Below are positions 42,255 to 63,271 of a stretch of 64,000 nucleotides of DNA, piece by piece. Position numbers and translations under genes: made by a program. Source of the DNA: an uncultured Gammaproteobacteria bacterium (GTDB lineage Bacteria; Patescibacteriota; Patescibacteriia; UBA10025; JAHIVO01); assembly GCA_964415025.1 (NCBI GenBank), contig CAYPXF010000002.1, forward strand, positions 11,825 to 75,824, in the 5' to 3' direction. Numbering within the stretch: the stretch's first letter is position 1; each line of letters opens with the position of its first letter. The notes beneath the pieces were generated by a model. That model saw nothing but the letters and a program-made list of their open reading frames with translations. It searched no databases and was not told the DNA's origin.

Positions 42255-42265
42255 AAGTTATCCAC

Positions 42266-46886: not shown

Positions 46887-46990
46887 GATGGTATTGTAGC
46901 ATACAAAAAGCATTGACAAAAAGTTTATTAGCACGCTCCAATGTATCAATACTAAAATAGTATTTTGTTTTCTTACATAAAAAAGAAACG

Positions 46991-47224
46991 ATGGATGCCT
47001 TTATCCAAGCATGTGCCAGTGAACCAGGTGCCCGAGAAGCAGCGCAAACAAGGACGCACATCACGGCCGTGTACCCGATAGATGACTACAAATGCGGCGC
47101 CATCACTGATGATGAGTCAGTTCTAGAACGCATGAGCTCATGCCCGGGATTTTATAAGTGGAGCAATCAGGACGGTCTGCACTTGGCAGAGTTTGCCCCC
47201 CTGTCTACGGTAATGCCGCTGTAG
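46991..47224 (+). CDS. hypothetical small protein (doubtful)
   Basis: 77-aa ORF followed by a bidirectional terminator at 47324-47356. No SD. Confidence 0.25.
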   Translation: MDAFIQACASEPGAREAAQTRTHITAVYPIDDYKCGAITDDESVLERMSSCPGFYKWSNQDGLHLAEFAPLSTVMPL

Positions 47225-47323
47225 CAGGTATCGGGGGCCGCTTATTTACCCAATATGCCGTCAGATGACTATAATCAGGATCCGATTATCCACACAGACT
47301 GAAGCACTGCTCCTTAGCAAAGC

Positions 47324-47356
47324 AAAACGCACTCTTTTGATTGAGTGCGTTTTTTA
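47324..47356. terminator. bidirectional rho-independent terminator (AAAACGCACTC...GAGTGCGTTTT)
   Basis: 11-bp stem flanked by A and T runs, read directly. Confidence 0.55.
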
Positions 47357-47370
47357 TTACTGTAAACTGT

Positions 47371-47769
47371 TTATTCCGTGGTCTGGCCGTCGAATTCCGG
47401 TTCGCTAGCCTCGGCCTCTTCTTTTGTCTTCCGTACTACGCCGTCTTTATGGTGGGCCGGTGAATAAATCGTGTACAGCTTGAGCATGTCGGCATCCGAC
47501 GTATTGACGACATTATGTTCACTGCCGGCCGGCACTACGATAGCACTGCCGTCGCCGACCTCGTATTCATTGCCGTCGATAATAACTTTACCCTGGCCTG
47601 CTTCGAACCGGAAAAACTGGTCGTTTTCGCCGTGCACTTCCATGCCGATCTCACTGTCCGGGGCAATGGCCATCAGCACCAGCTGGCTGTGCTTGGCCGT
47701 GTAGAGTACTTTGCGGAAATTGTCGTTTTCCACTGTCGCTTTTTCAATGTTGTCATGAAATCCTTTCAT
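47371..47769 (-). CDS. cupin-domain protein
   Basis: Cupin motifs (GMEVHGENDQFF...IVVPAGSEHNVVN). Confidence 0.7.
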   Translation of the reverse strand: MKGFHDNIEKATVENDNFRKVLYTAKHSQLVLMAIAPDSEIGMEVHGENDQFFRFEAGQGKVIIDGNEYEVGDGSAIVVPAGSEHNVVNTSDADMLKLYTIYSPAHHKDGVVRKTKEEAEASEPEFDGQTTE

Positions 47770-47965
47770 ACGTTTTGTGGTTTAATGATTTTTCATATTT
47801 ATCATACCAATGCGCTGACACCTTGACAAATCGTGCATTATTTTTCCAGCATATACATATTTCTTATAATCGCTGTGATGCTGTTTGACAAATATATTCT
47901 ACATAGTAACTTACATATTAGTACCTAAAAAATCTTTTACCTGCATTTTCAAGGAGGGATACAGC

Positions 47966-48346
47966 ATGAAATTCGTGATTGAGGCCGGCGCCATGTTACT
48001 GGATACGCTAGAAAACCAGGATAAAGAAATCGTGCATATCCAGTACGATATTGTTACCAGAAATACTCCGGCGACTACTTACCGCTGGTTATACAGCCGT
48101 TGGACATATACGATTATTGGTTTTGCCGATCCCAGAGTGAAGGATATGGATATTGAGGTTTATAAGCTGGTTGACACTATGTGGATACCAATAGCCAATG
48201 ATACGCTAAGGAATAAACTCCCTATGGTCGAAATCACTCCGGGTTCTGCGGCGCTTTATAAAATTATCGTCAGCGCGTACGAATTCATCGAGCCCTTTGT
48301 GGCAGCACATTACGGACTGATAGTTTATCACGTCAAGCCAGATTGA
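47966..48346 (+). CDS. hypothetical protein
   Basis: SD AAGGAGGG 7 nt upstream of the ATG at 47966. No recognised domain. Confidence 0.5.
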   Translation: MKFVIEAGAMLLDTLENQDKEIVHIQYDIVTRNTPATTYRWLYSRWTYTIIGFADPRVKDMDIEVYKLVDTMWIPIANDTLRNKLPMVEITPGSAALYKIIVSAYEFIEPFVAAHYGLIVYHVKPD

Positions 48347-48439
48347 TAAATCCGGCGCCAGCGTTATGCGCCTCCTTGTGTGATAATCCTGTCCATCAAA
48401 TGCTCGCAGTTTATGGTACTACTATGACTGTGGGCTTTT

Positions 48440-48826
48440 TTATGTGCGCATAAATTCACCCGGCGTGTGTACCGTAATCGGCAGCTGGCTCCGTACGTCG
48501 AGTATATGGCGGTCGTTACTAATAATCGGCGCGCCGGTTGCCTTCGCTAGGGCGGCAAACTTCCGGTCGTCTGGATCCTTGATCAGGCTGAACGCCTTCT
48601 CGTTTGTCGGTCCGGTGAACTCCTGATCTGGCTTAAAAAGGTCAGCAATATCTTCCCAGTCAAGCGGCGGGATTTGGTTGAGCAACTTCTTAGTCTCGCG
48701 TTTGGTTTTTTGGTTCCAAATCAACCAGTGCTCTCCTTTCCGCGCAGCCTGTACAACACGGGCCGAACTGCTGTGCCGGTTAAATTCCGCGGCGATAAAT
48801 ATGTTGGTATCGAGGATGAGTTGCAT
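48440..48826 (-). CDS. PIN-domain (VapC-like) protein
   Basis: LILDTNIFIAA and IISNDRHI acidic-residue blocks. No cognate antitoxin ORF lies upstream. Confidence 0.7.
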   Translation of the reverse strand: MQLILDTNIFIAAEFNRHSSSARVVQAARKGEHWLIWNQKTKRETKKLLNQIPPLDWEDIADLFKPDQEFTGPTNEKAFSLIKDPDDRKFAALAKATGAPIISNDRHILDVRSQLPITVHTPGEFMRT

Positions 48827-48855
48827 AGACTTATTGTACTTCGTATGAATGAATA

Positions 48856-49440
48856 TTAAAATAGTCTCTTGATTTTCTCCTGACTAGCGTATTGATACGG
48901 TAAATGTTTGAATGCTACCGGCAGTCTAGATTTGTCCGGATTCTGGCGGATGTAGTCAATGGTGTTATTCAGGTATGTGTTCGTGGTCATGATGCGCGTG
49001 TAGAAGCGCGACTGCAGACAAGAATGTTTTATGTTGTATTTTACCCTCATTTGTTCGTAGAAATAGGATTTGATGGTATACAGTACATCCGATATGGTGT
49101 ATGGATTGTCTCCCACCGCGGGCCGGGACACACGCGTTGGGAGGTGGTTATGGGATCCTGTTCTCTCCCTCTCCCCATCGCGGGTCTCTGCGCCCGCGAT
49201 GAGCCCGTCAAACGCCGTCGCGTTCATGATTAACAAATGTACGTAGTCCGGCATTATCTGGTATGCCAAACTATTGCAGCAAACAAAACCGCCACGTAGT
49301 TTACGTGACGGCCTGTAATAAAGAGCGTTTAGTTAATTATCATACAGTGAACATGCACTGTATTGCATTGATAATGCTATCAGCTCTCCTCCGTAACAGT
49401 CAAAACGTGCATTGCAAAATAAAACCCGCCAAACTTATTG
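48856..49440 (-). pseudogene. COG1943/IS200-like (RAYT-type Y1) transposase remnant in at least three frames
   Basis: Main ORF has PDYVHLLI (HuH), SRFYTRI, and YIRQNP with a downstream Y. Upstream fragments in other frames read FYFAMHVLTVTEE and LIALSMQYSACSLYDN. Confidence 0.45.
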
Positions 49441-49591
49441 TTCAGCGGACTGATCAAACGCGAGCTGGCCCGGGGTAACCGGCTGTTCGTCGCCACATTG
49501 ATGGCAAAACAGGCATTGGGTAGTATAGCCTACCTGCCATGAATCAGTAGCGACCTGCGCGCGTTCGACCTAACTGCAATAAGGGTAATGC

Positions 49592-49660
49592 AGGTACTAC
49601 TTAATTTCTTCAAGCGTACCCTCGACCCAGGCGTCTAATGCCAGGTGGCGAGCTCAATCT
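49592..49660 (-). repeat. remnant copy of the 3' end of the Cas4-like nuclease gene (about 88% identical to 51927-51985)
   Basis: Translates to AWVEGTLEEIK then a stop. Matches the ...AWVEGTLEEIKQC C-terminus of the 51839-52591 gene. Confidence 0.5.
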
Positions 49661-51021
49661 ACCCGATACGGCGCGATAGGCGTATGCCGACTCTTTCCTG
49701 ATTTGGCAAACCGTGCATAGTGCTTGCGTATTATGCGCAATGCTGCCGCGTTGTCTTTGGCCACATAGATATTGTCCGTATCATGCGGACTGATATAGCC
49801 GGCCTTCACCGGATGCTTTTTTATCCAGGCATATAATGCTTCCCACATGTTTCCGATCAGAATAAGGGGAATAGAGCGGACATGCTTTACCTGGGTGAGC
49901 TGCCACGCGTAAAAGAATTCCAGACACGTCCCCACGCCGCCCGGCATGACCACGACCGCGCCCGACAGAGCCATGAAGTAATCCAGCCGGTGCGAAAATT
50001 TATCAAATTCCTTTTTTATTTCCAGATGGCCGTTGTCCTCAATCTCCCAGGGCAGCCTGATCCGCAATCCCATAGAATCTGATTTATTATCCGTGTCACC
50101 GGCCGCGTGCCCGGCGTTGGCGGCCATCATCAGGCCCGGACCGCCGCCGGTCACGATGTCGATATGCTGTTCCCCGATAGCTTTGGCCAGAGCAAACGTC
50201 TGCCGGTACAGGGTGTCGTTTTTCCTGATCCGGGCTGATCCGAATATGGCCACGCGGAATTCACGCTTGTCCAGCTCTTGTCTCATCCTTTTCTCCACCA
50301 CATCATTACGCTCGAGCCATGCTTCGGCTTCGGTAATGATGGCGCGCATCATGCGCACCGATTCGACCGGGTATGTGCCGATAGCCGTCTCTTCAGACAG
50401 CATCACCGCGTGCGAGCCGTCAAACACCGCCGTAGCCACGTCATTGACCTCGGCGCGAGTGGGCTGCTTGCGGGCAGTCATGGAAAGTAGCATTTCCGTG
50501 GCCGTGATGACGAGCTTTTGTTTGATCAGCGATTTCTTGGTAAATTCTTTTTGCAGGGCCGGCACTTCCGGCAATGTAACAGCATTGCCCAAATCACCGC
50601 GCGCGATCATAATGCCGTCGGCAGCGTCCAGGATCGCATCAAAATTTCTAACCCCGGCGCTGGTTTCAATTTTGGCGATGACAAAACACCCGGGCAGGGC
50701 GTGGCGCACCGCCGCGATCTGATCCGGGCGCTCGGTGAAGGACAGAGCGATGTATTTGATCTTATGGTTGCGGGCATACGTTAGCGTGTCCAGCTCCTTG
50801 ATATCCAGCATCACGCGGATCTTATTCCTGGTCTGCACCTGCTTCAGATTGCGCAGAATGCGGTCGTATTGCCGGCTATCCCCGTATGCCGTGTTGATAC
50901 GGATAAAATCAATGCCTTCCCGCGCCATTGCCCGGAAAACTCCGAGCTGCAGACTGGCCGGTCCAATAGTGGCGATTATTTTTGTTTTGATCTGCCGCCG
51001 CGCCTTTATTGATTTTTTCAT
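49654..51021 (-). CDS. fusion protein: pyruvate-kinase A-domain core (no B or C domain) fused to a LOG/TIGR00730-family domain
   Basis: PK motifs KIIATIGPAS, KIETSAGV, MIARGDLG, SEETAIGTYP. LOG motifs AIFGSARI, IVTGGGPGLMMAANAGH, PGGVGTCLEF. The start ATG lies 6 nt from a TATACT box. Confidence 0.75.
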   Translation of the reverse strand: MKKSIKARRQIKTKIIATIGPASLQLGVFRAMAREGIDFIRINTAYGDSRQYDRILRNLKQVQTRNKIRVMLDIKELDTLTYARNHKIKYIALSFTERPDQIAAVRHALPGCFVIAKIETSAGVRNFDAILDAADGIMIARGDLGNAVTLPEVPALQKEFTKKSLIKQKLVITATEMLLSMTARKQPTRAEVNDVATAVFDGSHAVMLSEETAIGTYPVESVRMMRAIITEAEAWLERNDVVEKRMRQELDKREFRVAIFGSARIRKNDTLYRQTFALAKAIGEQHIDIVTGGGPGLMMAANAGHAAGDTDNKSDSMGLRIRLPWEIEDNGHLEIKKEFDKFSHRLDYFMALSGAVVVMPGGVGTCLEFFYAWQLTQVKHVRSIPLILIGNMWEALYAWIKKHPVKAGYISPHDTDNIYVAKDNAAALRIIRKHYARFAKSGKSRHTPIAPYRVD

Positions 51022-51114
51022 GACTTTAGTATACCAAAACCCCGCCCGCCGCACGAGCCACGCTCCCGAGGTGATACCGGCGGAATGGATTATAAAGATT
51101 AATATTAGCAGCAG

Positions 51115-51693
51115 TTAAAATTTTTTTTCTGCTGTGGAGACTATTTTTGAATATTCATTAACTATCCCGCTCTGCAGACGGGACTGCAGGACGAACAGTA
51201 CTTCCCGATAATACCATTTTTCGGATCCAGGTACGGGTTCAGGCGCATTAAACTGTTTCCAAATAGCGTCCCCGTCCTTTGTATGCCATTTGACTAATGA
51301 TTTTAGATTGACTATTTTATCGGCACAACTAACCATCAGCGCTTCGGCACTGTTTTTCTCAAGCGCTTGAATATATTCCTCTTTTCTTCGACGCCATGTT
51401 GCCTTGCTCTTTTCCCGGCTGTCCGTGGGGTCTTTTTTTTCAGAAACTTCCAAAACAATCATGGCCACGTGGTGACCAAAAGCGCGGGTTAATTTTTCAC
51501 TGGTATAGCCAGCCACATCTTCTAGCGTATCATGCAGCCATCCGGCACAAAGGATATTTTCATCATCTGTATATTTTTGCAATACTTCAACCACGGCTTG
51601 CGGATGGACGATATAAGGCGTTACCCCGTCTTTTCGCAACATGTTCGCGTGGAGCGTTCTGGCCTCATGTTCTGCTTTTTGGACTTTTGACAT
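51115..51693 (-). CDS. HD-domain small alarmone hydrolase (RelA/SpoT hydrolase-like, SAH/Mesh1-type)
   Basis: YIVHPQAVVEVL...WLHDTLEDV...FGHHVAMIVLEVSEK matches the RelA/SpoT HD hydrolase core. Confidence 0.7.
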   Translation of the reverse strand: MSKVQKAEHEARTLHANMLRKDGVTPYIVHPQAVVEVLQKYTDDENILCAGWLHDTLEDVAGYTSEKLTRAFGHHVAMIVLEVSEKKDPTDSREKSKATWRRRKEEYIQALEKNSAEALMVSCADKIVNLKSLVKWHTKDGDAIWKQFNAPEPVPGSEKWYYREVLFVLQSRLQSGIVNEYSKIVSTAEKKF

Positions 51694-51838
51694 AACTGTT
51701 TATACTAATCCACGCTTCTCCTTCTTTTTTTGAAAAAACTGCCTTACGCAAATTTGATTGTTTAAGCGCCTCCATATTTTCCGCGGTCCGCTGCTGCAAT
51801 TTTTGTTATTTTTTGTGGGAATATTTTGGGAAATAGTT

Positions 51839-52591
51839 TTATTTGCTCTTCAGCTTGCCTATTGCCTCGCGGTACGCGCAATAATCACAGTCAGGATCAG
51901 CTTGTGGGACTTTTGGGGAATCCAGGCACTGTTTAATTTCCTCGAGCGTACCCTCGACCCAGGCGTCTGATCCCTGGTGCGGAATCAATGTCACTCTGAA
52001 CTCCAGCCTGGCGTCAAACGCCTCCTTGTCCGCCATGCCATTACAGTATACGAAATACCCGGTGTCCGACACCGTGTACCCGTTCTGGCGCAGCAGCCAC
52101 TGGTATACTTCCATCTGGCGTTTGTATCCGTCCTGCCAGGCCTGATTCAGCTCTTTTATATCATCTTTCTTAGCGGTTGATTTATAATCGACTACGTACA
52201 AATTCTTTTTTTTATCGACCCAGATATCATCGACCGCGCCAGTTATGGTAAATCCGGTTTTCGCATGATCAAACTTCACTCCCTTGAAATTCTCCCGCCA
52301 TTCATCCATATGCACGTTCTGGTACGGGACCAGATCCAGGCCGTATGAATGCAGTAATGGATGCACTTTATTGGCTGCCCGGTGCACGTCAAATTCCGTC
52401 TTGAGCAGGGCATCGACCGCGCTGTTGAGGTTAAAGGGGTATCCTGGCGGCCGTTTTATTCCCAGTTTATTATCGATATAAAAACACCGCGGACACTCGG
52501 TAAACAGATCTATCTTTGACCGGGACAGTTTCCAATGCTTGCCGCCGTAGTTATAGCTTTCTTTTCTCGGGACCTTGTAGTAATCGGACAT
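51839..52591 (-). CDS. Cas4/AddB-like PD-(D/E)XK nuclease with a four-Cys cluster
   Basis: CPRCFY near the N-terminus, D...VVDYKS catalytic motif, and a C-terminal CDYCAYRE. Confidence 0.65.
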   Translation of the reverse strand: MSDYYKVPRKESYNYGGKHWKLSRSKIDLFTECPRCFYIDNKLGIKRPPGYPFNLNSAVDALLKTEFDVHRAANKVHPLLHSYGLDLVPYQNVHMDEWRENFKGVKFDHAKTGFTITGAVDDIWVDKKKNLYVVDYKSTAKKDDIKELNQAWQDGYKRQMEVYQWLLRQNGYTVSDTGYFVYCNGMADKEAFDARLEFRVTLIPHQGSDAWVEGTLEEIKQCLDSPKVPQADPDCDYCAYREAIGKLKSK

Positions 52592-52838
52592 TTTTTTATA
52601 TTTATTTATTATTTAACCTATGGCCGGGTAATGTCCTTGCCAGGCTGTACAATATTTGTTCAAGCGTATATCAAGTATACCTAAAATAGGCGAATAATAA
52701 AACCGCATCATCCGTCGGGGTGGTTGGATTGTATACAGCAATAGGTGAATATGATCGGCATTATTTGGGGGAATTGCTGTACTTAGCATAACCCCATAAA
52801 CCCGCACTGTGAGCAAATTCCCGCCGGCGCGAAGCGGA

Positions 52839-52867
52839 TTGACAAACAGCATAACATATAATACACT
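52839..52867 (+). promoter_or_regulatory. sigma-70 promoter TTGACA-17-TACACT
   Basis: Read directly. An SD GGAGGA lies 6 nt upstream of the ATG at 52922. Confidence 0.5.
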
Positions 52868-52921
52868 GTCCGGATGATAACAAAATAAACACCAATACAG
52901 TAAAGTAAAACGGAGGATACT

Positions 52922-53287
52922 ATGGCTGAAAGCACAAAAGGTGTTCTGCATGTCAAAATCCCTATTCGTAACAAGAAAAATGATACAATAATTGCTAAGG
53001 GGCACTTGTTCCTGCCGGCAGACTCCGGCGGCTGGATAGAACGCCTGATGCGCGACGCAGAGGGCTTTGAAGCGACCTTCCTGAGCATCTCATCTGTGAC
53101 AGACTGTCCGGGCACCTATGATATCACGTTTTCTCCCTGTCCGAGCGAGGAAGCGTTAATAGGGATGGAAAAAGGAACGCACTTCGGTATCCAGACCGAT
53201 ATCCAGGTCATCCGCGCCTTACGTGACGCCCTGGATTTCCATATCAGGGAATACGACCGGGAAAAGTCTGACGCAGAGGCAAAATAG
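52922..53287 (+). CDS. hypothetical protein
   Basis: 121-aa ORF with a good promoter, an SD and a downstream terminator. Confidence 0.55.
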   Translation: MAESTKGVLHVKIPIRNKKNDTIIAKGHLFLPADSGGWIERLMRDAEGFEATFLSISSVTDCPGTYDITFSPCPSEEALIGMEKGTHFGIQTDIQVIRALRDALDFHIREYDREKSDAEAK

Positions 53288-53303
53288 CCAGCCACCCGAA
53301 CCA

Positions 53304-53337
53304 AGACCCATCGCTAAAAACAATGGGTCTTTTTTTA
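53304..53337 (+). terminator. rho-independent terminator (AGACCCAT...ATGGGTCT then T7)
   Basis: Read directly. Confidence 0.6.
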
Positions 53338-53341
53338 TACC

Positions 53342-53427
53342 AAATTTTCCCGCCTAGTGGGGCTTAGCTAGCCGTTAGTTGTTAGATATTGGTTACGTTA
53401 TTGGTTGTTGGTTTTCAGACCGATAAC
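53342..53427 (+). repeat. direct repeat A (about 86 bp) flanking the HTH-ATPase/STAS module
   Basis: AAATTTTCCCGCCTAGTGGGGCTTAGCTAGCCGTTAGTTGTTAGATATTGGTTACGTTATTGG... is about 80% identical to 54598-54690. Confidence 0.6.
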
Positions 53428-53450
53428 AAACAGCCAGTATCCTTAAAAGT

Positions 53451-53771: not shown

Positions 53772-53777
53772 TTGCAA

Positions 53778-54512
53778 TTAATAGGTAATCACGGCGTACA
53801 CGCCACGTACGTTTTCCGAGACTTGCTTGATCTGCATGGCACCGTTCGCGGGAATACTGACCAGTCCAACGCCCGAACGAAAGGTGAGACCGATCGGGTT
53901 ATTCTCAACAACACTCCGTACGAGCTTTAATCCATTGCCCCGTTTTTCCGGGTCTCGGCCTGAAACAATTTCCGTAAAGGCAATATGCAGCGCTTCCTGG
54001 TCACTGGCAATAGCCGGTCGAACACGCTGTAGTGTTGCTCGGACACCACGGCCCCGATCTGCCACTACGATACTACGCTTGACCGTATCATAGCCGTAGA
54101 ATACTCCCGGCACATCAGGCCAGCTGCCGATATTGTGGGTGAAAGCGTTGTCCCCGATCTCACCGGCTACCTGGGTCAGCAATGAAACAATATCCGTCCC
54201 CGATGTGCCCAGCGTTTTCTGCAGCACTTCGGCCATTTTCACCAGCCGGCTGGTGAAGCGGTCCTGCCGATCGCAGTAATACTCATCGGGTAAGGTCGGC
54301 GCCTGGCTGCTTGCCGCCCAGGCCCAGGCCAACTTTGGTAAATCTACCGCCAACCGCCGTACTTCGGATAAACGATAATACCGCTGACCGCCTGGGCTGC
54401 GCTGGGCAGTAATCCGGCCTGATTTTTCCCAATTCCTCAGCGTTTGGGGGGAAATACCAAGTATTTTTGCTGCTTCGCTAACGCGGAGCATATCTTTATT
54501 AGAGTCCTTCAT
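53778..54512 (-). CDS. MerR-type HTH fused to a GHKL (RsbW-like HATPase_c) ATPase domain
   Basis: LRVSEAAKILGISPQTLRNWEKSG HTH. N-box EIGDNAFTHN, G1 DRGRGV, G2 GNGLKLV. The true start may be the internal MLRVSE at 54491. Confidence 0.65.
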   Translation of the reverse strand: MKDSNKDMLRVSEAAKILGISPQTLRNWEKSGRITAQRSPGGQRYYRLSEVRRLAVDLPKLAWAWAASSQAPTLPDEYYCDRQDRFTSRLVKMAEVLQKTLGTSGTDIVSLLTQVAGEIGDNAFTHNIGSWPDVPGVFYGYDTVKRSIVVADRGRGVRATLQRVRPAIASDQEALHIAFTEIVSGRDPEKRGNGLKLVRSVVENNPIGLTFRSGVGLVSIPANGAMQIKQVSENVRGVYAVITY

Positions 54513-54597
54513 ATTGTAAGTTTAAGGCATAAACCTACAAATGTCAAGTATTATTGTAATTTTGTGCCATAAATCTACAAAATATACTAATAAATAT

Positions 54598-54690
54598 AAA
54601 ATTTTCCGCCTAGTTGAGTTTAGCTAGTCATTAGTTTTTAGTTGTTAGACATTGGTTATATTATTGATTTTTGGTCTTTGGCCTGATAAC
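54598..54690 (+). repeat. direct repeat B (about 93 bp), paired with repeat A
   Basis: AAATTTTCCGCCTAGTTGAGTTTAGCTAGTCATTAGTTTTTAGTTGTTAGACATTGGTTATATTATTG... Confidence 0.6.
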
Positions 54691-55167
54691 TAAAGAAAAA
54701 AATCCTACGTTTAAAGTTTAACGCCTGCCTGCCTGGAATTTAGCCCTTTTTGCGCTTGCCAAAACCTTGTTTTTGACTGTTAATGCTGCCCAACTTACTA
54801 TGGCCGCTATGATACCAAGAAGTCTTTCTCCGTCCTTTTTTCTCTTTTTTTTCTTGCATACATCTTATGAATTTATTTATTATTTAAATGCGTGGAAGTA
54901 TGGGTTATTTGAAAGAGGATTTGGGGGGGGTAAATTTTAGTCCCCAAACGAAAAATGCTTCAATATTTTTCTCGGCCGGTGCGCTGTTTCGGTTCGCGGT
55001 CGTCAAATCGGCCGCCACGTTTGCCCGCGGCCCGCCCGACTCTGTCTCGGTTATCCATAGTGTTTGTATTTATGTAACAAGTACCTGCAATGTAGACTAA
55101 AATAGGAATAATAGCAATGCCCCGTGATTGCACAGTTCGCCCTACCACATCACCCTTGGGAATATTG

Positions 55168-55608: not shown

Positions 55609-55680
55609 GTGCGGATCACGCGGCAGATTTGAATAACGTCCGGTTTTTCTGATAGGAACGCGCATTGGTATACAGTCGTA

Positions 55681-56265: not shown

Positions 56266-56298
56266 CGATAATATAGTTTTCGCGGATAATCCTCATAC

Positions 56299-56652
56299 TC
56301 AAAATATCTTTCTAACAACAGATAAAAGATACGGAACGACGATAAAAACAACAAACGGAAATAGAAATAATAAAACAGGATATAGTAATGTGATCTGCCG
56401 GTGTCTCAGATATTTTATTATAGTAAATACACTGTAGCCGGTCGCTAGTATACCATATAGCATAAAAAGACTATCCACCCATACATCATGATATGCTAAA
56501 CGCCAGTGTGTGCCCCTGATAATCATTTCAACATATTCCGTGATTACCATAAAAGAAACCACAGAAAATACCAGATTAATAAACGATAAAACAACGGCGA
56601 CAACTTGGTTCCAGTTGATATGCTGACTGATTTTTTTGATGCCTTGCTGCAT
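56299..56652 (-). CDS. hypothetical 3-4 TM membrane protein
   Basis: 117-aa hydrophobic ORF. Confidence 0.45.
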   Translation of the reverse strand: MQQGIKKISQHINWNQVVAVVLSFINLVFSVVSFMVITEYVEMIIRGTHWRLAYHDVWVDSLFMLYGILATGYSVFTIIKYLRHRQITLLYPVLLFLFPFVVFIVVPYLLSVVRKIF

Positions 56653-56750
56653 AGTACCAGTATACCAGACTATAAACTCAGATACGAATAAAAAATCGCC
56701 CCCTGAATCATTTCAATGGGGGCGATTATATCTGGTCTCGGTACGTTAGG

Positions 56751-57131
56751 TCACCTGAACTCTACGTACCCATCGACATGGATACCGTCTCTCCAGATAT
56801 CTATCCAGATCTCTGTGCCTCGAGGATATTCCTCGTGGTACGAGTAACTGCAGTTAAAATCTCTGAGAGTAAATTTGATTCCGGAACGCTCATCCGCCCG
56901 GTCATCATATCGGGTGACACGAACTTTTGAGTTCACCGACGTGAGATTTGTTACCGTCATCAGATTGGAGCCGGTATCGTACTCGAACCGAATATGTTCC
57001 AGATCGAACGAATAGATTCCGCTACTGGAACTAATCTCATCCGGATCCGGTCCTAATAACTGCTCGCAGCCGCTGAACATGAGGGCGGCCAGGCAAAGAA
57101 CAAACAGCATCAACACGTTTCTCGTTTTCAT
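56751..57131 (-). CDS. putative lipoprotein
   Basis: MKTRNVLMLFVLCLAALMFSGC lipobox. SD TAGGAG lies upstream. Confidence 0.5.
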   Translation of the reverse strand: MKTRNVLMLFVLCLAALMFSGCEQLLGPDPDEISSSSGIYSFDLEHIRFEYDTGSNLMTVTNLTSVNSKVRVTRYDDRADERSGIKFTLRDFNCSYSYHEEYPRGTEIWIDIWRDGIHVDGYVEFR

Positions 57132-57346
57132 GATAACTCCTATCTTCGATTGGTTGATTTCCAGAATAAAACGAATGTATTCTAACAGCACATCATAGCA
57201 AAACAGCGCAATTTTGTCAATCCCTTAGCCAAATAAACCCTCCCCACATGTGTTCAGGGCATTTACATTATGAATTTATTAGTAGTTTAAGTTTCTGGTT
57301 TTGGCTATTCCAAATAATATTGCCGCTGATCAATCCGCGTAAAAAA

Positions 57347-57598
57347 TCAGCGCTTGGCTGTCTTGATCAGCGCCAGCTTCTCTCGCCGGGTCATCTGTTT
57401 CACCCGTGCTTCGGCCCTGAGTGCATACGCACGATTCCGGTACCGCCGGGTGTAGACTAATTTCACCGGCCGCTTGGAGCGGGTATATTTTGCACCGGCC
57501 TCTGATGAATTGTGCTCGCGTACTCGCTGCCGTACATCCCTCGCAATGCCGGTATAGAGTGCCCGATCAGCACAGCGGACAATGTAGAGATAGTACAT
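57347..57598 (-). CDS. GIY-YIG nuclease-domain protein (YhbQ-like)
   Basis: YYLYIVRCADRALYTGIARDVRQRVREHN matches GIY...YIG...R...H/N. Confidence 0.8.
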   Translation of the reverse strand: MYYLYIVRCADRALYTGIARDVRQRVREHNSSEAGAKYTRSKRPVKLVYTRRYRNRAYALRAEARVKQMTRREKLALIKTAKR

Positions 57599-57897
57599 AC
57601 ACCTTATTTTTTGCTTTATTAGTATTTGGCACCCGCCCCCCCCCAGCCAAACAGTTTACGCCGGAATCAATAGCGCTCGGGGTTGTTTTTTAAATAGGTA
57701 ATATAGTCGCGGATCATGTTGGTAGTATAGCAAGTTTTTTGCAGTAGCGTAATCACTCTGTTACGCGCGCCAGAAAACCAATGAGAAAAAATGCTTTTAG
57801 GCTAACTTGACTTTATTCTGTTTTGCCCGCATGATTATGATAGAAATTAAATAAAAAGTAGAATAAAAAACGTTACTTAAGAAAGTGAGGTAATGCC

Positions 57898-59364
57898 ATG
57901 TTTATCGTTGGCATCGAACCACGTGCTCCTGGATTACATATATTCAGTGGTGCGCGGCTACCACGTCTAGGATTACCGCTGCTCTTCACCATGGCGCAGG
58001 CTATGGGACACCAGGGAGAAATCTATTGTGAAGATATCGCTCCCATCGACTGGGAAAGGGTACGGCAGGCAGACATCATCTGTATTTCCTCCATCACCTC
58101 TACCATCCCTCGGACATATGAATTCATCCGCAAGATAAGGCAGGAACTCAAACTAACAACCCCCATCCTCATCGGCGGACCGCATGTGACATTCCTCCCT
58201 GACGAAGCGCTCGACCATGGTGCGGATTACGCCTTCCGCCACGAAGCTGACCATAGCTTCCCCACGTGGCTGCAATGGTGGACAAGCGGCCGTGATCCGC
58301 GCGGACTCTTTGACATTCCTGACCTGTCATTTAGGGTGGGAAATCAAAACCACCACAACACCGCCGATCACACACGGCAATGGGTCGACCTCGATACCCT
58401 ACCCACGCCTGACCTCAGGCTCATCGTCGGCTACGACAAGCCGAGTACCCTCCCGCTGATTACCTCACGCGGCTGTCCCTTCAACTGCGACTTTTGTTCT
58501 GAATACGCGATGTTTGGGCGTCGGTACCGATTTCGCTCGGAATCACGGATAATCAATGATCTCGAGTTCTATGACCGCATCTACGGCACCACACCCGTGT
58601 TTATCGCGGATGATAATGCCGCCGCCAACCCGGCTCGGCTGGAAGAACTCTGTACCAGCATAGTGAACAATGGTCTCGTCCGCCAGTTTTCCTGTCAAGT
58701 ACGGCTTGATTTAGGCAAACGCCCAAGAACGATTGCCCAGATGATCCAAGCCGGCGTGAATCGTGCCTTTATCGGATATGAATCAGTCAACCAGCTGAGT
58801 CTCGATGCCGCGGGGAAAAAACTGAAATCAGAGGAAATGCGCAGTCTGACCAAAGTTTTCCACCGGTACGGAATAGCCATCCACGCCATGTGGATACTGG
58901 GATTTGACGACGACACTATCGATACTGTCAAACAGACAATACGCTCCTGTATCCGCTGGGGTATAGAAACGAGTCAATTCCTGATATTGGTGCCAATCCC
59001 GGGCGCACCGCTGTACCAGCGTTTTGTCAAACAACGGCGGATCATCGTGCGTGACTGGGCAAAGTACGACGGCCATCACGTCACCTTCAAACCAATGGGC
59101 ATGACCGCCCGCCAGCTCCAGATAGCAGTGATGCTAGATGCTATGCCGCGAGTCTACAACCACTGGCAGACTTACAAACTGCTGTGGCGAAATAATCTAC
59201 AGCTCGCGTGGGGAGTGCTCACCAGAAAAGTAAAGCATCCGCTCATTAATTTGAAAGGAAATATCGAAACGTTCTTTGCGCGGTTAGGAGGACGCCGGGC
59301 AATCGTCAAGATTCGACCACAGGTTACTCGATACCTCAAACGGATTGAGCAACCAACCGAATAG
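57898..59364 (+). CDS. B12-binding-domain radical SAM protein (class B)
   Basis: N-terminal cobalamin-binding Rossmann-like domain, then TSRGCPFNCDFCSEY (CxxxCxxC). Confidence 0.85.
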   Translation: MFIVGIEPRAPGLHIFSGARLPRLGLPLLFTMAQAMGHQGEIYCEDIAPIDWERVRQADIICISSITSTIPRTYEFIRKIRQELKLTTPILIGGPHVTFLPDEALDHGADYAFRHEADHSFPTWLQWWTSGRDPRGLFDIPDLSFRVGNQNHHNTADHTRQWVDLDTLPTPDLRLIVGYDKPSTLPLITSRGCPFNCDFCSEYAMFGRRYRFRSESRIINDLEFYDRIYGTTPVFIADDNAAANPARLEELCTSIVNNGLVRQFSCQVRLDLGKRPRTIAQMIQAGVNRAFIGYESVNQLSLDAAGKKLKSEEMRSLTKVFHRYGIAIHAMWILGFDDDTIDTVKQTIRSCIRWGIETSQFLILVPIPGAPLYQRFVKQRRIIVRDWAKYDGHHVTFKPMGMTARQLQIAVMLDAMPRVYNHWQTYKLLWRNNLQLAWGVLTRKVKHPLINLKGNIETFFARLGGRRAIVKIRPQVTRYLKRIEQPTE

Positions 59365-59444
59365 CAATGTACATATTCCCTAAAGAGTCTAGTCGGCAGA
59401 CTGGACTCTTTTTTTATGACAAATTTCCCCGCCCGCCACGCAAA

Positions 59445-59550
59445 ATATAATACTCCCGGCCTTCCTTGATCCGGTGCATGAGCAGTGCGTTGTTGTTTTC
59501 GATAATCACGGCGGATGAGCGCCAGGGGTATTTGTGTTTTGTTATAACGT
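59445..59550 (-). repeat. remnant 5' fragment of a NUDIX gene with its upstream TATACT module (about 85% identical to 63040-63155)
   Basis: Translates to ITKHKYPWRSSAVIIENNNALLMHRIKEGREYY and then diverges. The start ATG is mutated to ATA. Confidence 0.5.
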
Positions 59551-59632
59551 CAGTATAGCAAAAACTGTTATGTTTTGCCCTCTTGAGACCTCTATATCTT
59601 CTAAGTTATATACCAAAACTTCTGCCAAACTA

Positions 59633-59932
59633 CTAAGAACGGGCTGTCAGCGTAACCTTTTGGCCCAATGCAGACGAGATGCGGCTGAGCTTTGCCACCG
59701 TAACATTATGATGACCGCTTTCGAGGCGCGCAATCTCGCTCTGCGGCATGCCCGTCTTTTTTGCCAGCTGTGCCTGGGTGATCTTTTTCTTCTTTCGTGC
59801 TTCAGCAATTGCAATAGCGATATCTAGTAATTCACGCTCCTCTTGGAGTAACTTCTGGTACTCTTTGTCCTTTTGGTATTTGTAGAGAATATTATCTTTA
59901 TGCATATGTTTAAAAAGGTTTACGTTTCTCAT
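59633..59932 (-). CDS. HTH-XRE antitoxin (HigA-like)
   Basis: KKKITQAQLAKKTGMPQSEIARLESG HTH. Overlaps the upstream toxin gene by 23 nt. Confidence 0.7.
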   Translation of the reverse strand: MRNVNLFKHMHKDNILYKYQKDKEYQKLLQEERELLDIAIAIAEARKKKKITQAQLAKKTGMPQSEIARLESGHHNVTVAKLSRISSALGQKVTLTARS

Positions 59933-60263
59933 TTATCTCATACTCCATATATAAATTCTGAATTTTCTCGAAAACTTTTGATTCAATATTATCTCGTTTT
60001 TTAGTATATCCGTCCAATAGTATGATATCTGGACCTCGGCGAATAAAGTAAAAAACTCTACTTCCAAACCTGGTTCGCAGCTCCCAAATTTTCCCCTCTA
60101 CATGTGCTGCAAACGGTCTTGGCAATCTCCCGCCAGAATGTGACAGTCTTTCAATTACCGCCTGTACCGCGGCAATCTGTCTGCGCTCTGATAAAGAATG
60201 TATGTACTCCTCAGCTGGTGCGCGTCCGTTTCGGCGGACAAAATAATAGACTTTTATTTGCAT
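59910..60263 (-). CDS. HigB/Gp49-like (RelE/ParE superfamily) toxin
   Basis: GKIWELRTRFGSRVFYFIRRGPDIILLDGYTKK matches the Gp49/HigB family. Confidence 0.7.
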   Translation of the reverse strand: MQIKVYYFVRRNGRAPAEEYIHSLSERRQIAAVQAVIERLSHSGGRLPRPFAAHVEGKIWELRTRFGSRVFYFIRRGPDIILLDGYTKKRDNIESKVFEKIQNLYMEYEINEKRKPF

Positions 60264-60462
60264 GCTAAGTATGAGCTACTATTAAAATATATCATATATG
60301 GTATATTGTCAAATCTAACTTATCCACATATTTTGACACCAAGATGTAGTGGATATTAAGAAAATTTAATACACCAAATTAGGATTTTTCACTTTTCAGA
60401 TATATGACAAAAATGTATCAAATCTGAAAAGCGCTACCAATGGCAATCCCTAGATACTTTTC

Positions 60463-60564
60463 TTAATCTGACTTAGCAGGGTATTGATTTTGGCTTCTTT
60501 GCTTTGGATATCCCCCACCAACTCCGCCGGCTATTTCTGGTGGGATAAATTTTGCTTTTTTCAT
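60463..60564 (-). CDS. 33-aa glycine-rich small ORF with a leaderless TATACT-6-ATG start (speculative)
   Basis: MKKAKFIPPEIAGGVGGGYPKQRSQNQYPAKSD. The promoter module matches that of other accessory genes here. Confidence 0.2.
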   Translation of the reverse strand: MKKAKFIPPEIAGGVGGGYPKQRSQNQYPAKSD

Positions 60565-60641
60565 GCTGTGAGTATAGCAAAAATGAGACTTGAGGGGGGT
60601 CCGCATTTCGCAGACCCCGAGTCCGCCGGGAGCAATATCAC

Positions 60642-60935
60642 TCACAACTTATTTGGCACACACCCACTGTTTACCCATTCACAATCCGGCGAACCGTCCG
60701 GATTCGCCCGCAGCTGCGTATCAACCACATCGATGACTTGGCAATCCTCAGCTGTGGTCGCAGTACAATAGGCGCCCATACAATAATTCATTTCAAACGT
60801 TAATTCTGGTGTGCTGGTATCGATATCCGCACATGATATAGTATCATCTACCAGCAACGGTTGGGACGCGACCCAGATACCAAATGCAAGGATAGTGTAA
60901 TTATCACCAGTACTATAATATTCCCCCGTCGCCAA
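60642..60935 (-). CDS. hypothetical Cys-rich protein (6 Cys); TTG start only
   Basis: 97-aa ORF with no ATG start and no SD. Weak support. Confidence 0.2.
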   Translation of the reverse strand: MATGEYYSTGDNYTILAFGIWVASQPLLVDDTISCADIDTSTPELTFEMNYCMGAYCTATTAEDCQVIDVVDTQLRANPDGSPDCEWVNSGCVPNKL

Positions 60936-61201
60936 AAACTACGGTTTGCTTGCTTTTCTGATAAGTTGTTCTCTGTATTCCCCATATATATTAGTATATC
61001 AAAGTTCCACGTTTGGAGCATTATAATTTTGAATTTTGGGATTGTTTTGCCCCCTGCCACGTGAGGCATGAGCGGGCAGGGATAGCGGGCAGGTGCTTCG
61101 ATATTCGAATTTCGGATTTAATCATTCTCACATCCCACATCTCACATCCGGACTAACCTCTCATTTCCCACATCTCACATCACACCAGTGATCCAAAATT
61201 A

Positions 61202-61900
61202 TTACTTCTGCTCACTCTCTAGTAGTAATCGTAAATTGAAAATCGTATCTTCGCGTAACTTTGTTTTTACCCAATCCTTCTGGCTCTCATCCAATAGCTC
61301 GCCCATTCCGGACAGAATGCCGCGATCAGGTAATGTTTCCAACAATTCTATGCATGCATGAATGAAATCTGCAAACGATAGTCCTGTCCGATCCTCAATA
61401 ATCTTTTTATTTATCTGCCAATGTTTTTTTAGAAAAAAATTAACGTCAAAAATATCACGACTCGCTTTCGCGGCCCGCTCGTACATCGCTACCAGCTTAT
61501 GAGCAAACATATCTTCAGGCACCATTACGTTCATTGCTATCCCCATATACTGTTTCACTTCATAGCGTGAATGAAAATCTCGCAGATTAATCTCAATCTT
61601 TATGTTTCGCGATCCTTCGTCATACGAAATAAGCAAAAATAAACTGTACCGCTTTTTTCTGCTATCTTTGACCGCGCCGTACTGTTCGGCAATCCGCGTC
61701 ACTTTTTCTAACACGGTATTCGCCTCGTCCTGATTCAGAAGATCGAAGTCTAAATCTACCGATGCCCTGGCAAGGTCATAGAATAAATATGCTGCCGTAC
61801 CTCCTTTAAATCCAAGAAAAGGTCCGATAGTTGTATCGGTGTATATCTCCCGTAGGATGCGTAATAGTATTCTCTTGTGCTCCAGCTGGTCCAAAACCAT
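61202..61900 (-). CDS. abiEii: AbiEii/AbiGii-family nucleotidyltransferase toxin (DUF1814)
   Basis: GFKGGTAAYLFY...RASVDLDFD core of the AbiEii nucleotidyltransferase fold. Confidence 0.75.
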   Translation of the reverse strand: MVLDQLEHKRILLRILREIYTDTTIGPFLGFKGGTAAYLFYDLARASVDLDFDLLNQDEANTVLEKVTRIAEQYGAVKDSRKKRYSLFLLISYDEGSRNIKIEINLRDFHSRYEVKQYMGIAMNVMVPEDMFAHKLVAMYERAAKASRDIFDVNFFLKKHWQINKKIIEDRTGLSFADFIHACIELLETLPDRGILSGMGELLDESQKDWVKTKLREDTIFNLRLLLESEQK

Positions 61901-61912
61901 AATTATCTGCCT

Positions 61913-62488
61913 CTAGTTTTTTTGAGTATACAATGTATGTATTCTTTTATTAAAACTCTTATTGCCATATATAGGCATAATATCAAAAACCGCGTCCCAG
62001 TCGATGTGCGACAGATTATCGAAGTAATAATTGCGCTGTAAATAGGCCGTATCCAAAAATGCTCTTTCTAAACTCGCAATATAATAATTCTCTTTTTTTA
62101 TCACGCCTTTAGAATTTGTTAGGATAGAATCTTTTATTCGTCGGTATATAAATAATTGCCCTCGTACGTGCACCTCCCTGGAAATATATGAAGCGGCGAA
62201 TATCTGGCTATACTTTTGGAACACGGCACCCTCTGAGCCTAAAACGGTCTCAAAACTGATATAGGAAGGAGTGTAGATTTTAGTTGCAAGCTCAATTGCA
62301 TTATACTTCTCATCCTTAGCATAAATTCCCCTACGCAATCGAATTAACTGACCTTTTTTAACGTATTTTCTAAGTCTTTCCCGTGCGGATGATTCATTTT
62401 TTTCGCCCCATAACAAGGAAATGTCCTTTGTTGAAAAGATGGTTTGGGGAGACCTCAGAAGGGTGTTTAAATATTGACCTTTTTTCAT
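61913..62488 (-). CDS. abiEi: AbiEi-family antitoxin/transcriptional regulator
   Basis: About 190 aa with an N-terminal wHTH-like region. Immediately upstream of abiEii. A 6-bp inverted repeat GTCACC-TTTAT-GGTGAC lies in its promoter region. Confidence 0.7.
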   Translation of the reverse strand: MKKGQYLNTLLRSPQTIFSTKDISLLWGEKNESSARERLRKYVKKGQLIRLRRGIYAKDEKYNAIELATKIYTPSYISFETVLGSEGAVFQKYSQIFAASYISREVHVRGQLFIYRRIKDSILTNSKGVIKKENYYIASLERAFLDTAYLQRNYYFDNLSHIDWDAVFDIMPIYGNKSFNKRIHTLYTQKN

Positions 62489-62561
62489 ATATATGCTATT
62501 TCTCTACTGTATGTCACCTTTATGGTGACTTCCAGTATAAATATTAGCATATTTTCAATAT

Positions 62562-62681
62562 TTATGCAACCATACCCTGGCCGAGCTTCTGCAGTTCACG
62601 CCGCACATACGGCATCCAGTGGTCGTGGTTTGTCCCGCCGCCATTGCCGTGGATGATGATGGCTTTTTGTGGTTGGGGCAT
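62562..62681 (-). pseudogene. 39-codon N-terminal fragment of a YdeN-like alpha/beta-hydrolase gene
   Basis: MPQPQKAIIIHGNGGGTNHDHWMPYVRRELQKLGQGMVA then a stop. It lacks the nucleophile-elbow region. Confidence 0.35.
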
Positions 62682-62723
62682 GATGAGAAATATATATTAT
62701 TGTGACTAAAAATGCAGAGGACG

Positions 62724-63143
62724 CTATTTGATCTGGTCTGCTAATATTTTTCTGATTCCCTCTGGATATAGAGTAAGCGCACTCAAATCTTTCACCGGAT
62801 GCCATTCTAATATATACCGATTCCGGTCAGTCATTCGCCCGAGCTCCTCTCCGCCGAGCGTCACGGTACCTGCGGTAATGTGACAAAGATATAGGCGGTG
62901 GGTCCGTTGGTCATTGGGCCAGTCATTATACACTTCACCCAGTTTCTCAGTAATCTGCACGTCGACACTGGCCTCCTCTCGTATTTCACGTACCAATGTC
63001 TGCTCGCTGGTCTCGCCGTCCTCCATGCTGCCGCCGGGTAATATATAATACTCCCGGCCTTCCTGGATCCTATGCATGAGCAGTACATTGTTGTTTTCGA
63101 TAATAACGGCGGATGAACGCCAGGGGTATTTGTGTTTTGTCAT
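62724..63143 (-). CDS. NUDIX hydrolase
   Basis: Nudix box GGSMEDGETSEQTLVREIREEASV. The start ATG lies 6 nt from a TATACT box. Confidence 0.8.
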   Translation of the reverse strand: MTKHKYPWRSSAVIIENNNVLLMHRIQEGREYYILPGGSMEDGETSEQTLVREIREEASVDVQITEKLGEVYNDWPNDQRTHRLYLCHITAGTVTLGGEELGRMTDRNRYILEWHPVKDLSALTLYPEGIRKILADQIK

Positions 63144-63271
63144 GATGTCAGTATACCAAAACCCAGCACCCAATGACCATACTAACTTCTAAAAACTAAC
63201 AACCAAAAACCGCCCTCGCACCCGGAGTGGTGCAGGAAGGACTTAGAGTATGGTGAAAAATGTGCCCTATA

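Follow-up and report, generated by a model that had tools for sequence, protein, structure and literature searches.

A −10 box six nucleotides upstream of ATG suggests leaderless mRNAs in an uncultured CPR bacterium

The leaderless mRNAs of lambda cI and of tetR from Tn1721 strictly require a 5'-AUG. In these E. coli cases, as is generally known and discussed in PMC3898074, the promoter abuts the ATG of accessory or regulatory genes, and they are rare exceptions in a genome dominated by Shine-Dalgarno (SD) sites. Bacterial leaderless genes are recognised by a Pribnow box at 6-8 nt from their start, and in the GeneMarkS-2 "group C" genomes (Actinobacteria, Deinococcus-Thermus) 25-50% of the operons are leaderless (PMC6028130). 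For M. tuberculosis, Cortes et al. (2013; PMC3898074) put the share of leaderless genes obtained with TANNNT promoters at 26%; its toxin-antitoxin modules are mostly leaderless (32 of 37), and SD-led genes show the reciprocal distribution (PMC3898074). Such an arrangement is already well known in other bacteria and no new mechanism is revealed here; what is new is the presumed leaderless arrangement as a feature of CPR/Patescibacteria. A full-text literature search retrieved no published report in which leaderless transcripts or the use of SD sites were connected with this group.

The window, i.e. the whole 64-kb stretch of DNA analysed, originates from an uncultured CPR bacterium and contains a −10 box exactly 6 nt upstream of the start codon in nine ATG-bearing modules and in one fragment carrying ATA instead, while the gap is 7 nt in three more (Table 1). 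Since a strong −10 box exactly 6 nt before ATG points to an mRNA start at the start codon, the mRNAs of these genes are most likely leaderless. A classical bacterial leaderless arrangement, with transcription predicted from promoter geometry to start on the A of the ATG, appears to be the best reading and is held with considerable confidence. The arrangement resembles that of group C genomes in that the box lies 6-8 nt upstream of the first-gene start codon in operons and that other genes of the same genome possess SD sites. However, the host is a Patescibacterium, and its boxes are mostly of the extended −10 type (TGn) with the consensus TATACT/TACAAT. As in M. tuberculosis, a TANNNT −10 box without a −35 element is the dominant promoter determinant, but TGn, found on only 7% of the M. 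tuberculosis −10 boxes, is the rule here, and all module starts are ATG whereas GTG starts are common in M. tuberculosis. Furthermore, start site and start codon coincide in M. tuberculosis, while in the present case their coincidence is predicted from promoter geometry. In contrast to the E. coli mobile-element cases the arrangement is frequent, and it is conserved on a housekeeping helicase across the clade.

The six minus-strand instances of the preliminary description (UvrD, PIN, PK-LOG, NUDIX, the 33- and the 16-codon ORF) were all recovered at their positions, as were the related spacings of 8-11 nt upstream of the SAH, thyA and Panacea-antitoxin genes. That these instances were all noted on the minus strand only mirrors the way the genes of the region run; the hpf and rpmE candidates are located on the plus strand.

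Table 1. Positions and arrangement of the −10 box modules, near variants and a leadered reference gene in the window.
Feature	Position	Strand	Arrangement	Gap (nt)	ATG	Remark
UvrD/PcrA-like helicase	46884..46901	-	TGCTACAAT-ACCATC-ATG	6	46886-46884	
PIN-domain gene	48824..48838	-	TACAAT-AAGTCT-ATG	6	48826	without TGn
Pyruvate-kinase/LOG fusion (PK-LOG)	51019..51036	-	TGGTATACT-AAAGTC-ATG	6	51021	
MerR-HTH/ATPase gene	54510..54547	-	TTGACA-N17-TAAACT-N6-ATG	6		not listed previously
117-aa membrane ORF	56650..56667	-	TGGTATACT-N6-ATG	6	56652	not listed previously
16-codon ORF	57715..57732	-	TGCTATACT-ACCAAC-ATG	6	57717	
33-codon ORF	60562..60579	-	TGCTATACT-CACAGC-ATG	6	60564	
45-codon ORF in degraded region	60983..61001	-	TGATATACT-N7-ATG	7		not listed previously
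NUDIX hydrolase gene	63141..63158	-	TGGTATACT-GACATC-ATG	6	63143	
NUDIX 5' fragment	59543..59560	-	TGCTATACT-GACGTT-ATA	6		inside 131-nt copy 59433-59563
gatB N-terminus relic, 16 codons	25426..25443	-	TGATACAAT-N6-ATG	6		not listed previously
hpf (ribosome hibernation factor)	22526..22564	+	TTGACA-N17-TATACT-N7-ATG	7	22562	not listed previously
rpmE (L31)	2569..2584	+	TACTAT-N7-ATG	7	2582	weaker candidate; not listed previously
thyA	29182..29199	-	TATACT	9	29184	predicted 5' UTR ~2-3 nt
HTH/SocA-Panacea antitoxin gene	42252..42297	-	TTGACA-N17-TGATACAAT	11	42254	predicted 5' UTR ~4-5 nt
SAH (small alarmone hydrolase-like, HD_4) gene	51691..51707	-	TAGTAT	8	51693	
Leadered reference gene, same box	4867..4941	+	TGCTATACT (4867-4875), 63 nt including GAGGAGGTG		4939	

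The recurrence of the box at 6 nt from ATG is not due to chance. Within the window, TGNTANNNT-N6-ATG was observed 8 times (2.75 expected; at least 8 in none of 100 shuffles) and TAYAMT-N6-ATG 10 times (2.7 expected). Extended −10 boxes of the form TGNTAYAMT numbered 21 against 8.9 expected; seven of them are followed by ATG at a gap of 6 nt, one at 7 nt and none at 0-5 or 8-10 nt. Besides this excess over shuffles, the motif search in the window confirmed an enrichment at gene starts: TGnTANNNT-N6 precedes 4 of 67 curated gene-start ATGs but only 4 of 2030 other ATGs (Fisher p = 6e-5), and three of these four other ATGs are relic or small-ORF starts. Once uvrD itself is set aside, gaps of 6-7 nt show a modest excess across 851 kb of sequence from more distant Patescibacteria. 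A pyrimidine at −1 has no power to tell leaderless starts since about 85% of all gene starts in the window carry one.

The occurrence of the same TGnTATACT/TACAAT box 16-64 nt upstream of other genes identifies it as a promoter element rather than a signal for ribosome binding. TGNTAYAMT boxes precede leadered genes at 4867, 8882, 10913, 10967 and 18775, and the box at 4867 drives a gene with a strong SD site (187 aa in the public gene call). TGn is positioned directly before TANNNT, and these extended −10 boxes are over-represented and lie at variable distance to genes. In the modules of hpf, the MerR gene and the Panacea gene, TTGACA is located 17 nt from the box. The region 3 of sigma factors contacts the TGn element, and a sigma-70 family protein with Sigma70 r1_2, r2, r3 and r4, a candidate reader of the boxes, is encoded at 25499-26356. 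Furthermore, terminator hairpins were detected directly upstream of two modules: the box of the 117-aa membrane ORF follows about 22 nt after the end of an intrinsic terminator (CGCCCCC...GGGGGCG-TTTTTT), and a terminator-like hairpin (51057-51041) runs into the PK-LOG box. In several UvrD orthologues (e.g. at locus L090) terminator, box, N6 and ATG follow each other within about 35 nt. Terminators adjoining the boxes leave no room for a 5' leader.

These features also bear on the possibility that the box represents an A/T-rich non-SD translation signal on mRNAs from upstream promoters, similar to the "group B" motifs of Bacteroidota. A fixed distance between box and ATG would be equally expected of a ribosome-binding signal, and more than half of the genes in the window lack an SD site so that some non-SD mechanism must exist. 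However, the same 9-mer is found 16-64 nt from other starts, in one case followed by a canonical SD site, TGn and the TTGACA at 17 nt belong to promoters, terminators lie immediately upstream of the boxes, and the motif was not found at the curated starts of internal operon genes in the window. A translation signal of this kind therefore seems very improbable.

The boxes are best explained as sigma-70-type extended −10 promoters, most of which lack a −35 element and whose consensus is TGnTATACT or TGnTACAAT. The canonical start, the seventh base after the −10 hexamer, is the A of the ATG: with the hexamer at −12 to −7, the gap of 6 nt places this A at +1, and Y-A-T matches the "start element" Y(−1)R(+1)Y(+2). 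In 93% of cases, a YRY start element centred 7 bp after the −10 box lies at the start site (PMC12641261). The resulting mRNAs would possess neither a 5' UTR nor an SD site, and ribosome and initiator tRNA would bind the 5'-terminal AUG. Consistent with the preliminary description, no SD core was found within −16 to −4 of any module start. Its proposal of leaderless translation appears to be the best-supported reading in view of the promoter box, TTGACA, the terminators and the conservation upstream of uvrD, with the start site itself being deduced from geometry.

For six or seven real genes the ATG preceded by a TANNNT hexamer ending 5-8 nt upstream is confirmed as start codon by Pfam starts, gene calls and orthologue N-termini, whereas the start ATGs of the 16-, 33- and 45-codon ORFs are putative only. 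Pfam profiles start to align within residues 3-10 of UvrD, PIN, PK-LOG, NUDIX, the MerR gene product and Hpf; position 2 of PIN_3 aligns to residue 3 of the PIN protein, position 1 of the MerR profile to residue 10, and position 5 of the NUDIX profile to residue 10 of the 139-aa form. Independent gene calls agree on the module ATGs, including those of uvrD (1380 aa) and the PIN gene, except for NUDIX, which is called from the ATG at 63077 (117 aa). In many UvrD orthologues an in-frame stop precedes the ATG by 4 codons, and the orthologues conserve their N-terminus from this ATG onwards.

It is conceivable that the boxes are real promoters while the 5'-terminal ATG is not used, either because translation starts at a downstream ATG or because the small ORFs are untranslated; an ATG at +1 would then reflect only a start-site preference for A(+1)T(+2). 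The public NUDIX call, the 16- and 33-codon ORFs and the gatB relic, which are not credible as full genes, and the general nature of the YRY preference would fit this scenario. It seems unlikely, however, given the Pfam starts, the lack of SD sites at the alternative ATGs, and the UvrD N-terminus with its upstream stops; moreover, A(+1)T(+2) alone demands no G at +3. The coding capacity of the 16- and 33-codon ORFs is doubtful, and their promoters may simply drive the downstream genes via long leaders. The 16-codon ORF, which precedes the GIY-YIG gene start (57598) by 119 nt, has no Pfam match and is probably a gene remnant or an upstream ORF. For the 33-codon ORF, 300 nt upstream of a Gp49/HTH toxin-antitoxin pair, neither a Pfam match nor a homologue among the compared loci was found. 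The gatB relic precedes the current gatB ATG (25328) by 100 nt.

The presumed leaderless arrangement is conserved in uvrD. Among 73 distinct upstream regions of UvrD orthologues from diverse Patescibacteria, TANNNT occurs at a gap of 6 nt in 25, of which 17 also carry TGn, compared to none at 5 nt and three at 7 nt. The architecture is kept across 12 different hexamers and spacers of varied sequence. In the PK-LOG orthologues (69-72% identity) the strict module is absent and no clear box was detected at a gap of 6 nt.

The preliminary description had also noted a NUDIX fragment carrying the whole module with ATG changed to ATA, which is indeed present. The fragment (59433-59563) is 89% identical to 63031-63161 and stems from an old duplication that covered the initial 131 nt, with a likeness upstream of the ATG only at positions which the promoter consensus would fix anyway. 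The further claim that the module moves together with gene 5' ends is weakly backed, by this one duplication, while the PK-LOG orthologues and locus L020, where two copies of the uvrD 5' end possess different, unrelated boxes and spacers, speak against it. Going further, the module might be a copied or mobile cassette spread among accessory genes by duplication, its recurrence reflecting common descent instead of independent selection. Four copies are 67-85% identical over 33 nt (family D2), GGGTTTTGGTATACT is common to the PK-LOG and NUDIX upstream regions, and the box is present on the NUDIX fragment. However, the likeness is confined to function-fixed positions (the T-run, TGnTATACT, ATG and the A-rich early codons) and is lost further upstream and at most spacer positions, which together with the module-free PK-LOG orthologues, the 12 hexamers in uvrD and the unrelated L020 copies leaves descent from a common cassette with little probability. 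Neither identity beyond constrained positions nor travel with the gene between genomes was found for a mobile promoter cassette.

A broader scenario, which we consider tentative and rather doubtful as a whole, combines an ancient, selected leaderless mode with the mobility of gene 5' ends. Extended −10 leaderless initiation would be ancient in Patescibacteria, as pointed to by uvrD across dozens of lineages, and gene 5' ends may act as self-contained units, promoter and start codon being fused within some 18 nt. Toxin-antitoxin/Abi cassettes would enter there through one-sided homologous capture, thereby duplicating the first 55-131 nt of the target. The NUDIX gene of the window with AbiE and Gp49/HTH, uvrD with Fic at L020 and tgt with AbiE at locus L046 fit this pattern. 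The insertions might leave relic leaderless mini-ORFs (the gatB relic, the 16-codon ORF), which by now may act on SD-less downstream genes, either as donors of a promoter or as leaderless upstream ORFs.

The proposal that the module defines a class of accessory genes was not supported by the 68 curated starts of the window (30 core, 38 accessory). A box at a gap of 5-8 nt without SD site precedes 4 of 30 core and 9 of 38 accessory genes (p = 0.36), and SD sites show no preference for core genes either (6/30 vs 12/38; p = 0.41). The module or a near variant was detected at the core genes uvrD, hpf, rpmE, thyA and dciA and the relic gatB start, and strong SD sites at the accessory starts 4939, 47966, 52922, 57131 and 57898. 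The proposed contrast is the one described between leaderless and SD-led genes in M. tuberculosis, but it has no statistical support in the present window. Moreover, M. tuberculosis lacks leaderless ribosomal-protein genes whereas rpmE and hpf are leaderless candidates here. An accessory-only leaderless regulon is not supported in view of these p-values and the leaderless-type uvrD across the clade. Only a post-hoc split of the strong intergenic extended −10 boxes speaks for the accessory end of the window, with 1 of 7 being leaderless in the first 46 kb and 8 of 8 beyond.

The module is found on genes that open small transcription units, core and accessory alike, and is one among several initiation modes of the host, next to SD-led genes and genes with neither signal. 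Leaderless units are estimated to account for about 13-16 of the 68 starts in this single 64-kb window. If confirmed, organisms with reduced ribosomes and translation machinery would use leaderless initiation for housekeeping and defence genes, and TGnTATACT-N6-ATG would offer a compact, portable promoter-start design for expression in these genetically intractable bacteria. For gene starts of CPR bacteria, annotation should then rely on a promoter-aware (leaderless) start model. The NUDIX gene of the window is already truncated by public calls.

All six instances of the module named in the preliminary description, a TATACT or TACAAT box followed by exactly 6 nt and then ATG, were recovered in place on the minus strand at the starts of the UvrD, PIN, PK-LOG (pyruvate-kinase/LOG fusion) and NUDIX genes and of the 33-aa and 16-aa ORFs; according to the sequence reading TGn precedes the box in five of them. 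The wider gaps (nucleotides between box and start codon) of 8-11 nt were likewise confirmed, with gap 8 at the HD_4 gene (SAH), gap 9 at thyA, the true start of which is ATG 29184 (MRQYLELL...), and gap 11 at the Panacea-type antitoxin, which besides this box has TTGACA at 17-nt spacing. Further modules are compiled in the table below. The impression that the module is always on the minus strand merely follows gene orientation; hpf and rpmE are plus-strand cases at gap 7. The 7.9 kb of same-genome sequence past the window end contain one more N6 case, at hsdR. The HsdS “fragment” at 63272-63772 (166 aa) turned out to be a gene cut by the window end, the complete gene encoding 375 aa.

Further promoter-start modules and repeat-bracketed cassettes (window positions unless a fetched metagenomic locus is named; L103 belongs to the same genome, past the window end)
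Feature	Position	Strand	Architecture or content	Preliminary description
Module of the 117-aa membrane ORF	56667-56650			absent
Module of the MerR-ATPase gene	54547-54510		TTGACA-N17-TAAACT-N6-ATG	absent
Module of the relic gatB start	25443-25426			absent
Module of hpf	22526-22564	+	TTGACA-N17-TATACT-N7-ATG, gap 7	absent
Module of rpmE		+	gap 7	absent
Module of hsdR, start of a type I restriction-modification operon	L103 320-348, ~7.5 kb past the window end		TAGAGT-N6-ATG	
NUDIX repeats	59433-63161		around AbiEi/AbiEii and Gp49/HTH	
uvrD repeats	L020 8850-10090		around antitoxin and Fic	
tgt repeats	L046 6480-8080		around AbiEi/AbiEii	

The arrangement TGNTANNNT-N6-ATG was observed 8 times against 2.75 expected, a count reached in 0 of 100 shuffles, and TAYAMT-N6-ATG occurs 10 times in the window (2.7 expected). 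TGNTAYAMT boxes number 21 in the window against 8.9 expected, and their spacing histogram is the clearest of the tests against chance: an ATG follows at gap 6 in 7 of the 21 boxes, at gap 7 in one and at gaps 0-5 and 8-10 in none. Furthermore, the motif is not equally frequent at random ATGs, since TGnTANNNT-N6 precedes 4/67 curated gene-start ATGs versus 4/2030 other ATGs (p = 6e-5, Fisher), and three of the latter four are relic or small-ORF starts. A chance origin of the modules was ruled out by the shuffles, the spacing histogram and the Fisher tests.

Judging from the encoded proteins, the genuine genes do begin at the module ATGs. The Pfam profiles start at residues 3-10 for PIN, NUDIX, MerR, hpf and GatB, and UvrD starts a few residues ahead of its conserved “LN..Q..AV” motif, as do its orthologues. 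The same genes are present on public contigs of SRR7048225/SRR7048227, for which independent gene calls share the ATGs of UvrD, PK-LOG, PIN, L31 and RF1. The public NUDIX gene calls begin at the internal ATG 63077 and yield 117 aa, with the loss of 22 residues (window 62724-63143, minus strand; L103 8824-9177); in the 139-aa form, which starts at the leaderless-type ATG, position 5 of the Pfam NUDIX profile aligns with residue 10.

The box behaves like an extended -10 promoter of the sigma-70 type rather than a ribosome-binding signal, since the same 9-mer is also located at variable, longer distances ahead of other genes; in the clearest leadered use, TGCTATACT at 4867-4875 is separated from ATG 4939 by a 63-nt leader that contains GAGGAGGTG. 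TTGACA is found at the canonical 17-nt spacing in three modules, and the window codes for a sigma-70 family protein in which regions 1.2, 2, 3 and 4 are present. A clean intrinsic terminator (CGCCCCC...GGGGGCG-TTTTTT) ends ~22 nt upstream of the 56652 box, and a hairpin adjoins the PK-LOG box. The leaderless reading of the modules, as proposed in the preliminary description, is a well-supported prediction. With the hexamer at -12 to -7 and a 6-nt gap, the A of the ATG would be +1 and the Y-A-T triplet would then form the Y(-1)R(+1)Y(+2) “start element”, which in 93% of cases sets the start site when it is centred 7 bp past the -10 (PMC12641261). The pyrimidine at -1 (9/9 counted) fits the start-element model yet does not discriminate, as T or C occupies -1 in ~85% of all gene starts, and it was dropped as start-site evidence. 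Bacterial leaderless genes are classically recognised by a Pribnow box at 6-8 nt from the start, a signature that GeneMarkS-2 implements as its “group C” (Actinobacteria, Deinococcus-Thermus), in which 25-50% of operons are leaderless (PMC6028130). None of the papers found in a full-text literature search linked leaderless transcripts or Shine-Dalgarno (SD) usage to Patescibacteria, the candidate phyla radiation (CPR); a promoter survey covers the start sites of Nanosynbacter lyticus, and leaderless genes are not discussed there (PMC12641261).

The relatives of PheS and UvrD place the window in the Patescibacteria (CPR), near Candidatus Kerfeldbacteria and Parcubacteria. UvrD orthologues from 80 metagenomic loci (59-79% identity) and from the additional locus L002 provided 73 distinct upstream regions, 25 of which have TANNNT at gap 6 (17 with TGn), compared to 3 at gap 7 and 0 at gap 5. 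Their boxes represent twelve different hexamers, mostly TAAAAT, and the spacers are unrelated, so that on uvrD, a housekeeping gene, the architecture and not the sequence is kept across a broad clade. In many orthologues an in-frame stop lies 4 codons ahead of the ATG, and in several terminator, box, N6 and ATG succeed one another inside ~35 nt. This conservation is the strongest indirect evidence for a function. In 160 kb of relatives around pheS the strict motif TAYAMT showed no gap-6 peak and the relaxed TANNNT a modest one, the box consensus in AT-richer relatives being TAAAAT. Apart from uvrD, the lineage-wide excess in 851 kb was modest and is partly confounded by codon periodicity. In the UvrD-like helicase of the window (42771-46886, minus strand), Hint/Intein_splicing hits also reveal an intein, and the C-terminus bears a PD-(D/E)XK domain. 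This intein is missing from the L002 orthologue, whose alignment skips from residue 281 to residue 645.

The module had been assigned to a defined class of accessory genes, with SD sequences noted on many core genes. Among 68 curated starts annotated with Pfam (30 core, 38 accessory or unknown), a box at gap 5-8 without SD was detected in 4/30 core versus 9/38 accessory or unknown genes (p = 0.36), and an SD in 6/30 core versus 12/38 accessory genes (p = 0.41); the accessory-class claim is therefore not supported. Core candidates are uvrD, hpf, rpmE, dciA (gap 5), thyA (gap 9) and the ancestral gatB start, and strong SD sites are found on accessory genes (starts 4939, 47966, 52922, 57131 and 57898). 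About half of the curated starts (34/68) lack both an SD core and a -10 box within 11 nt of the ATG. The accessory end is favoured only when the strong intergenic boxes are split post hoc, 1/7 being leaderless in the part up to 46 kb and 8/8 in the part beyond, which consists of many single-gene units, each in need of its own promoter. The contrast originally drawn is the pattern of M. tuberculosis, in which 32/37 toxin-antitoxin modules and none of the ribosomal-protein genes are leaderless (PMC3898074), and the window does not establish it.

The proposed movement of the module together with gene 5' ends was based on a NUDIX fragment, which does exist (59433-59563 versus 63031-63161, 89% identity) and has TGCTATACT-GACGTT-ATA. 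It represents an old duplication of the first 131 nt, and identity between the copies ahead of the ATG is limited to positions which the promoter consensus would fix. In the metagenomic locus L020 the UvrD 5' end is present twice, with different boxes and spacers. PK-LOG orthologues at 69-72% identity are without the strict module and so give no support for a module travelling with that gene. Mobility of the module is thus not supported.

The 16-, 33- and 45-codon ORFs, which gave no Pfam hits and no homologues in the fetched loci (1.2 Mb), and the short ORF at 25428 are best read as relic 5' ends with surviving promoters. ATG 25428 opens MNKYELVIGLEIYLPV and a stop, in which the gatB N-terminus (MKKYEPVIGLEIH at 25328) is repeated in diverged form. 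This relic consists of 16 codons behind a perfect TGATACAAT-N6-ATG (25378-25443, minus strand), lies 100 nt upstream of the current gatB start and shares ~74% nucleotide identity with the current gatB 5' end. The current start (25328) is devoid of both a box of its own and an SD site, so gatB is probably driven by the relic promoter, and surviving promoters upstream probably do the same for the GIY-YIG gene and the Gp49/HTH pair. The 16-codon ORF at 57622-57717 (minus strand), in which a TGA stop is followed by 15 further codons in the same frame (FRRKLFGWGGAGAKY), looks like a decayed gene 5' end.

In three independent cases, toxin-antitoxin/Abi cassettes are located between direct repeats of the first 55-131 nt of the host gene. 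The repeats, 88-93% identical, start on the ATG or close to it, and none of the three cassettes contains a recombinase. Each of the L020 uvrD copies has its own box-N6-ATG promoter, the two being mutually different. The bracketed cassettes may have arisen by one-sided homologous capture of foreign DNA.

The window also includes a gene-free gap of 806 nt upstream of thrS (15981-16785); Rfam and tRNA scans of the whole window, including this gap, gave no hits. A 56-nt direct repeat (53375-53430 and 54638-54693) with 80% identity, nearly identical in its first 21 nt and with 0 expected by chance, flanks the gene pair of MerR-ATPase and a STAS-like protein (DUF4325) and may be another cassette boundary. 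Rearrangement in the region is further indicated by 65 nt directly after the PK-LOG stop that repeat the 3' end of the PD-(D/E)XK nuclease gene with 85% identity (49583-49647 and 51915-51979).
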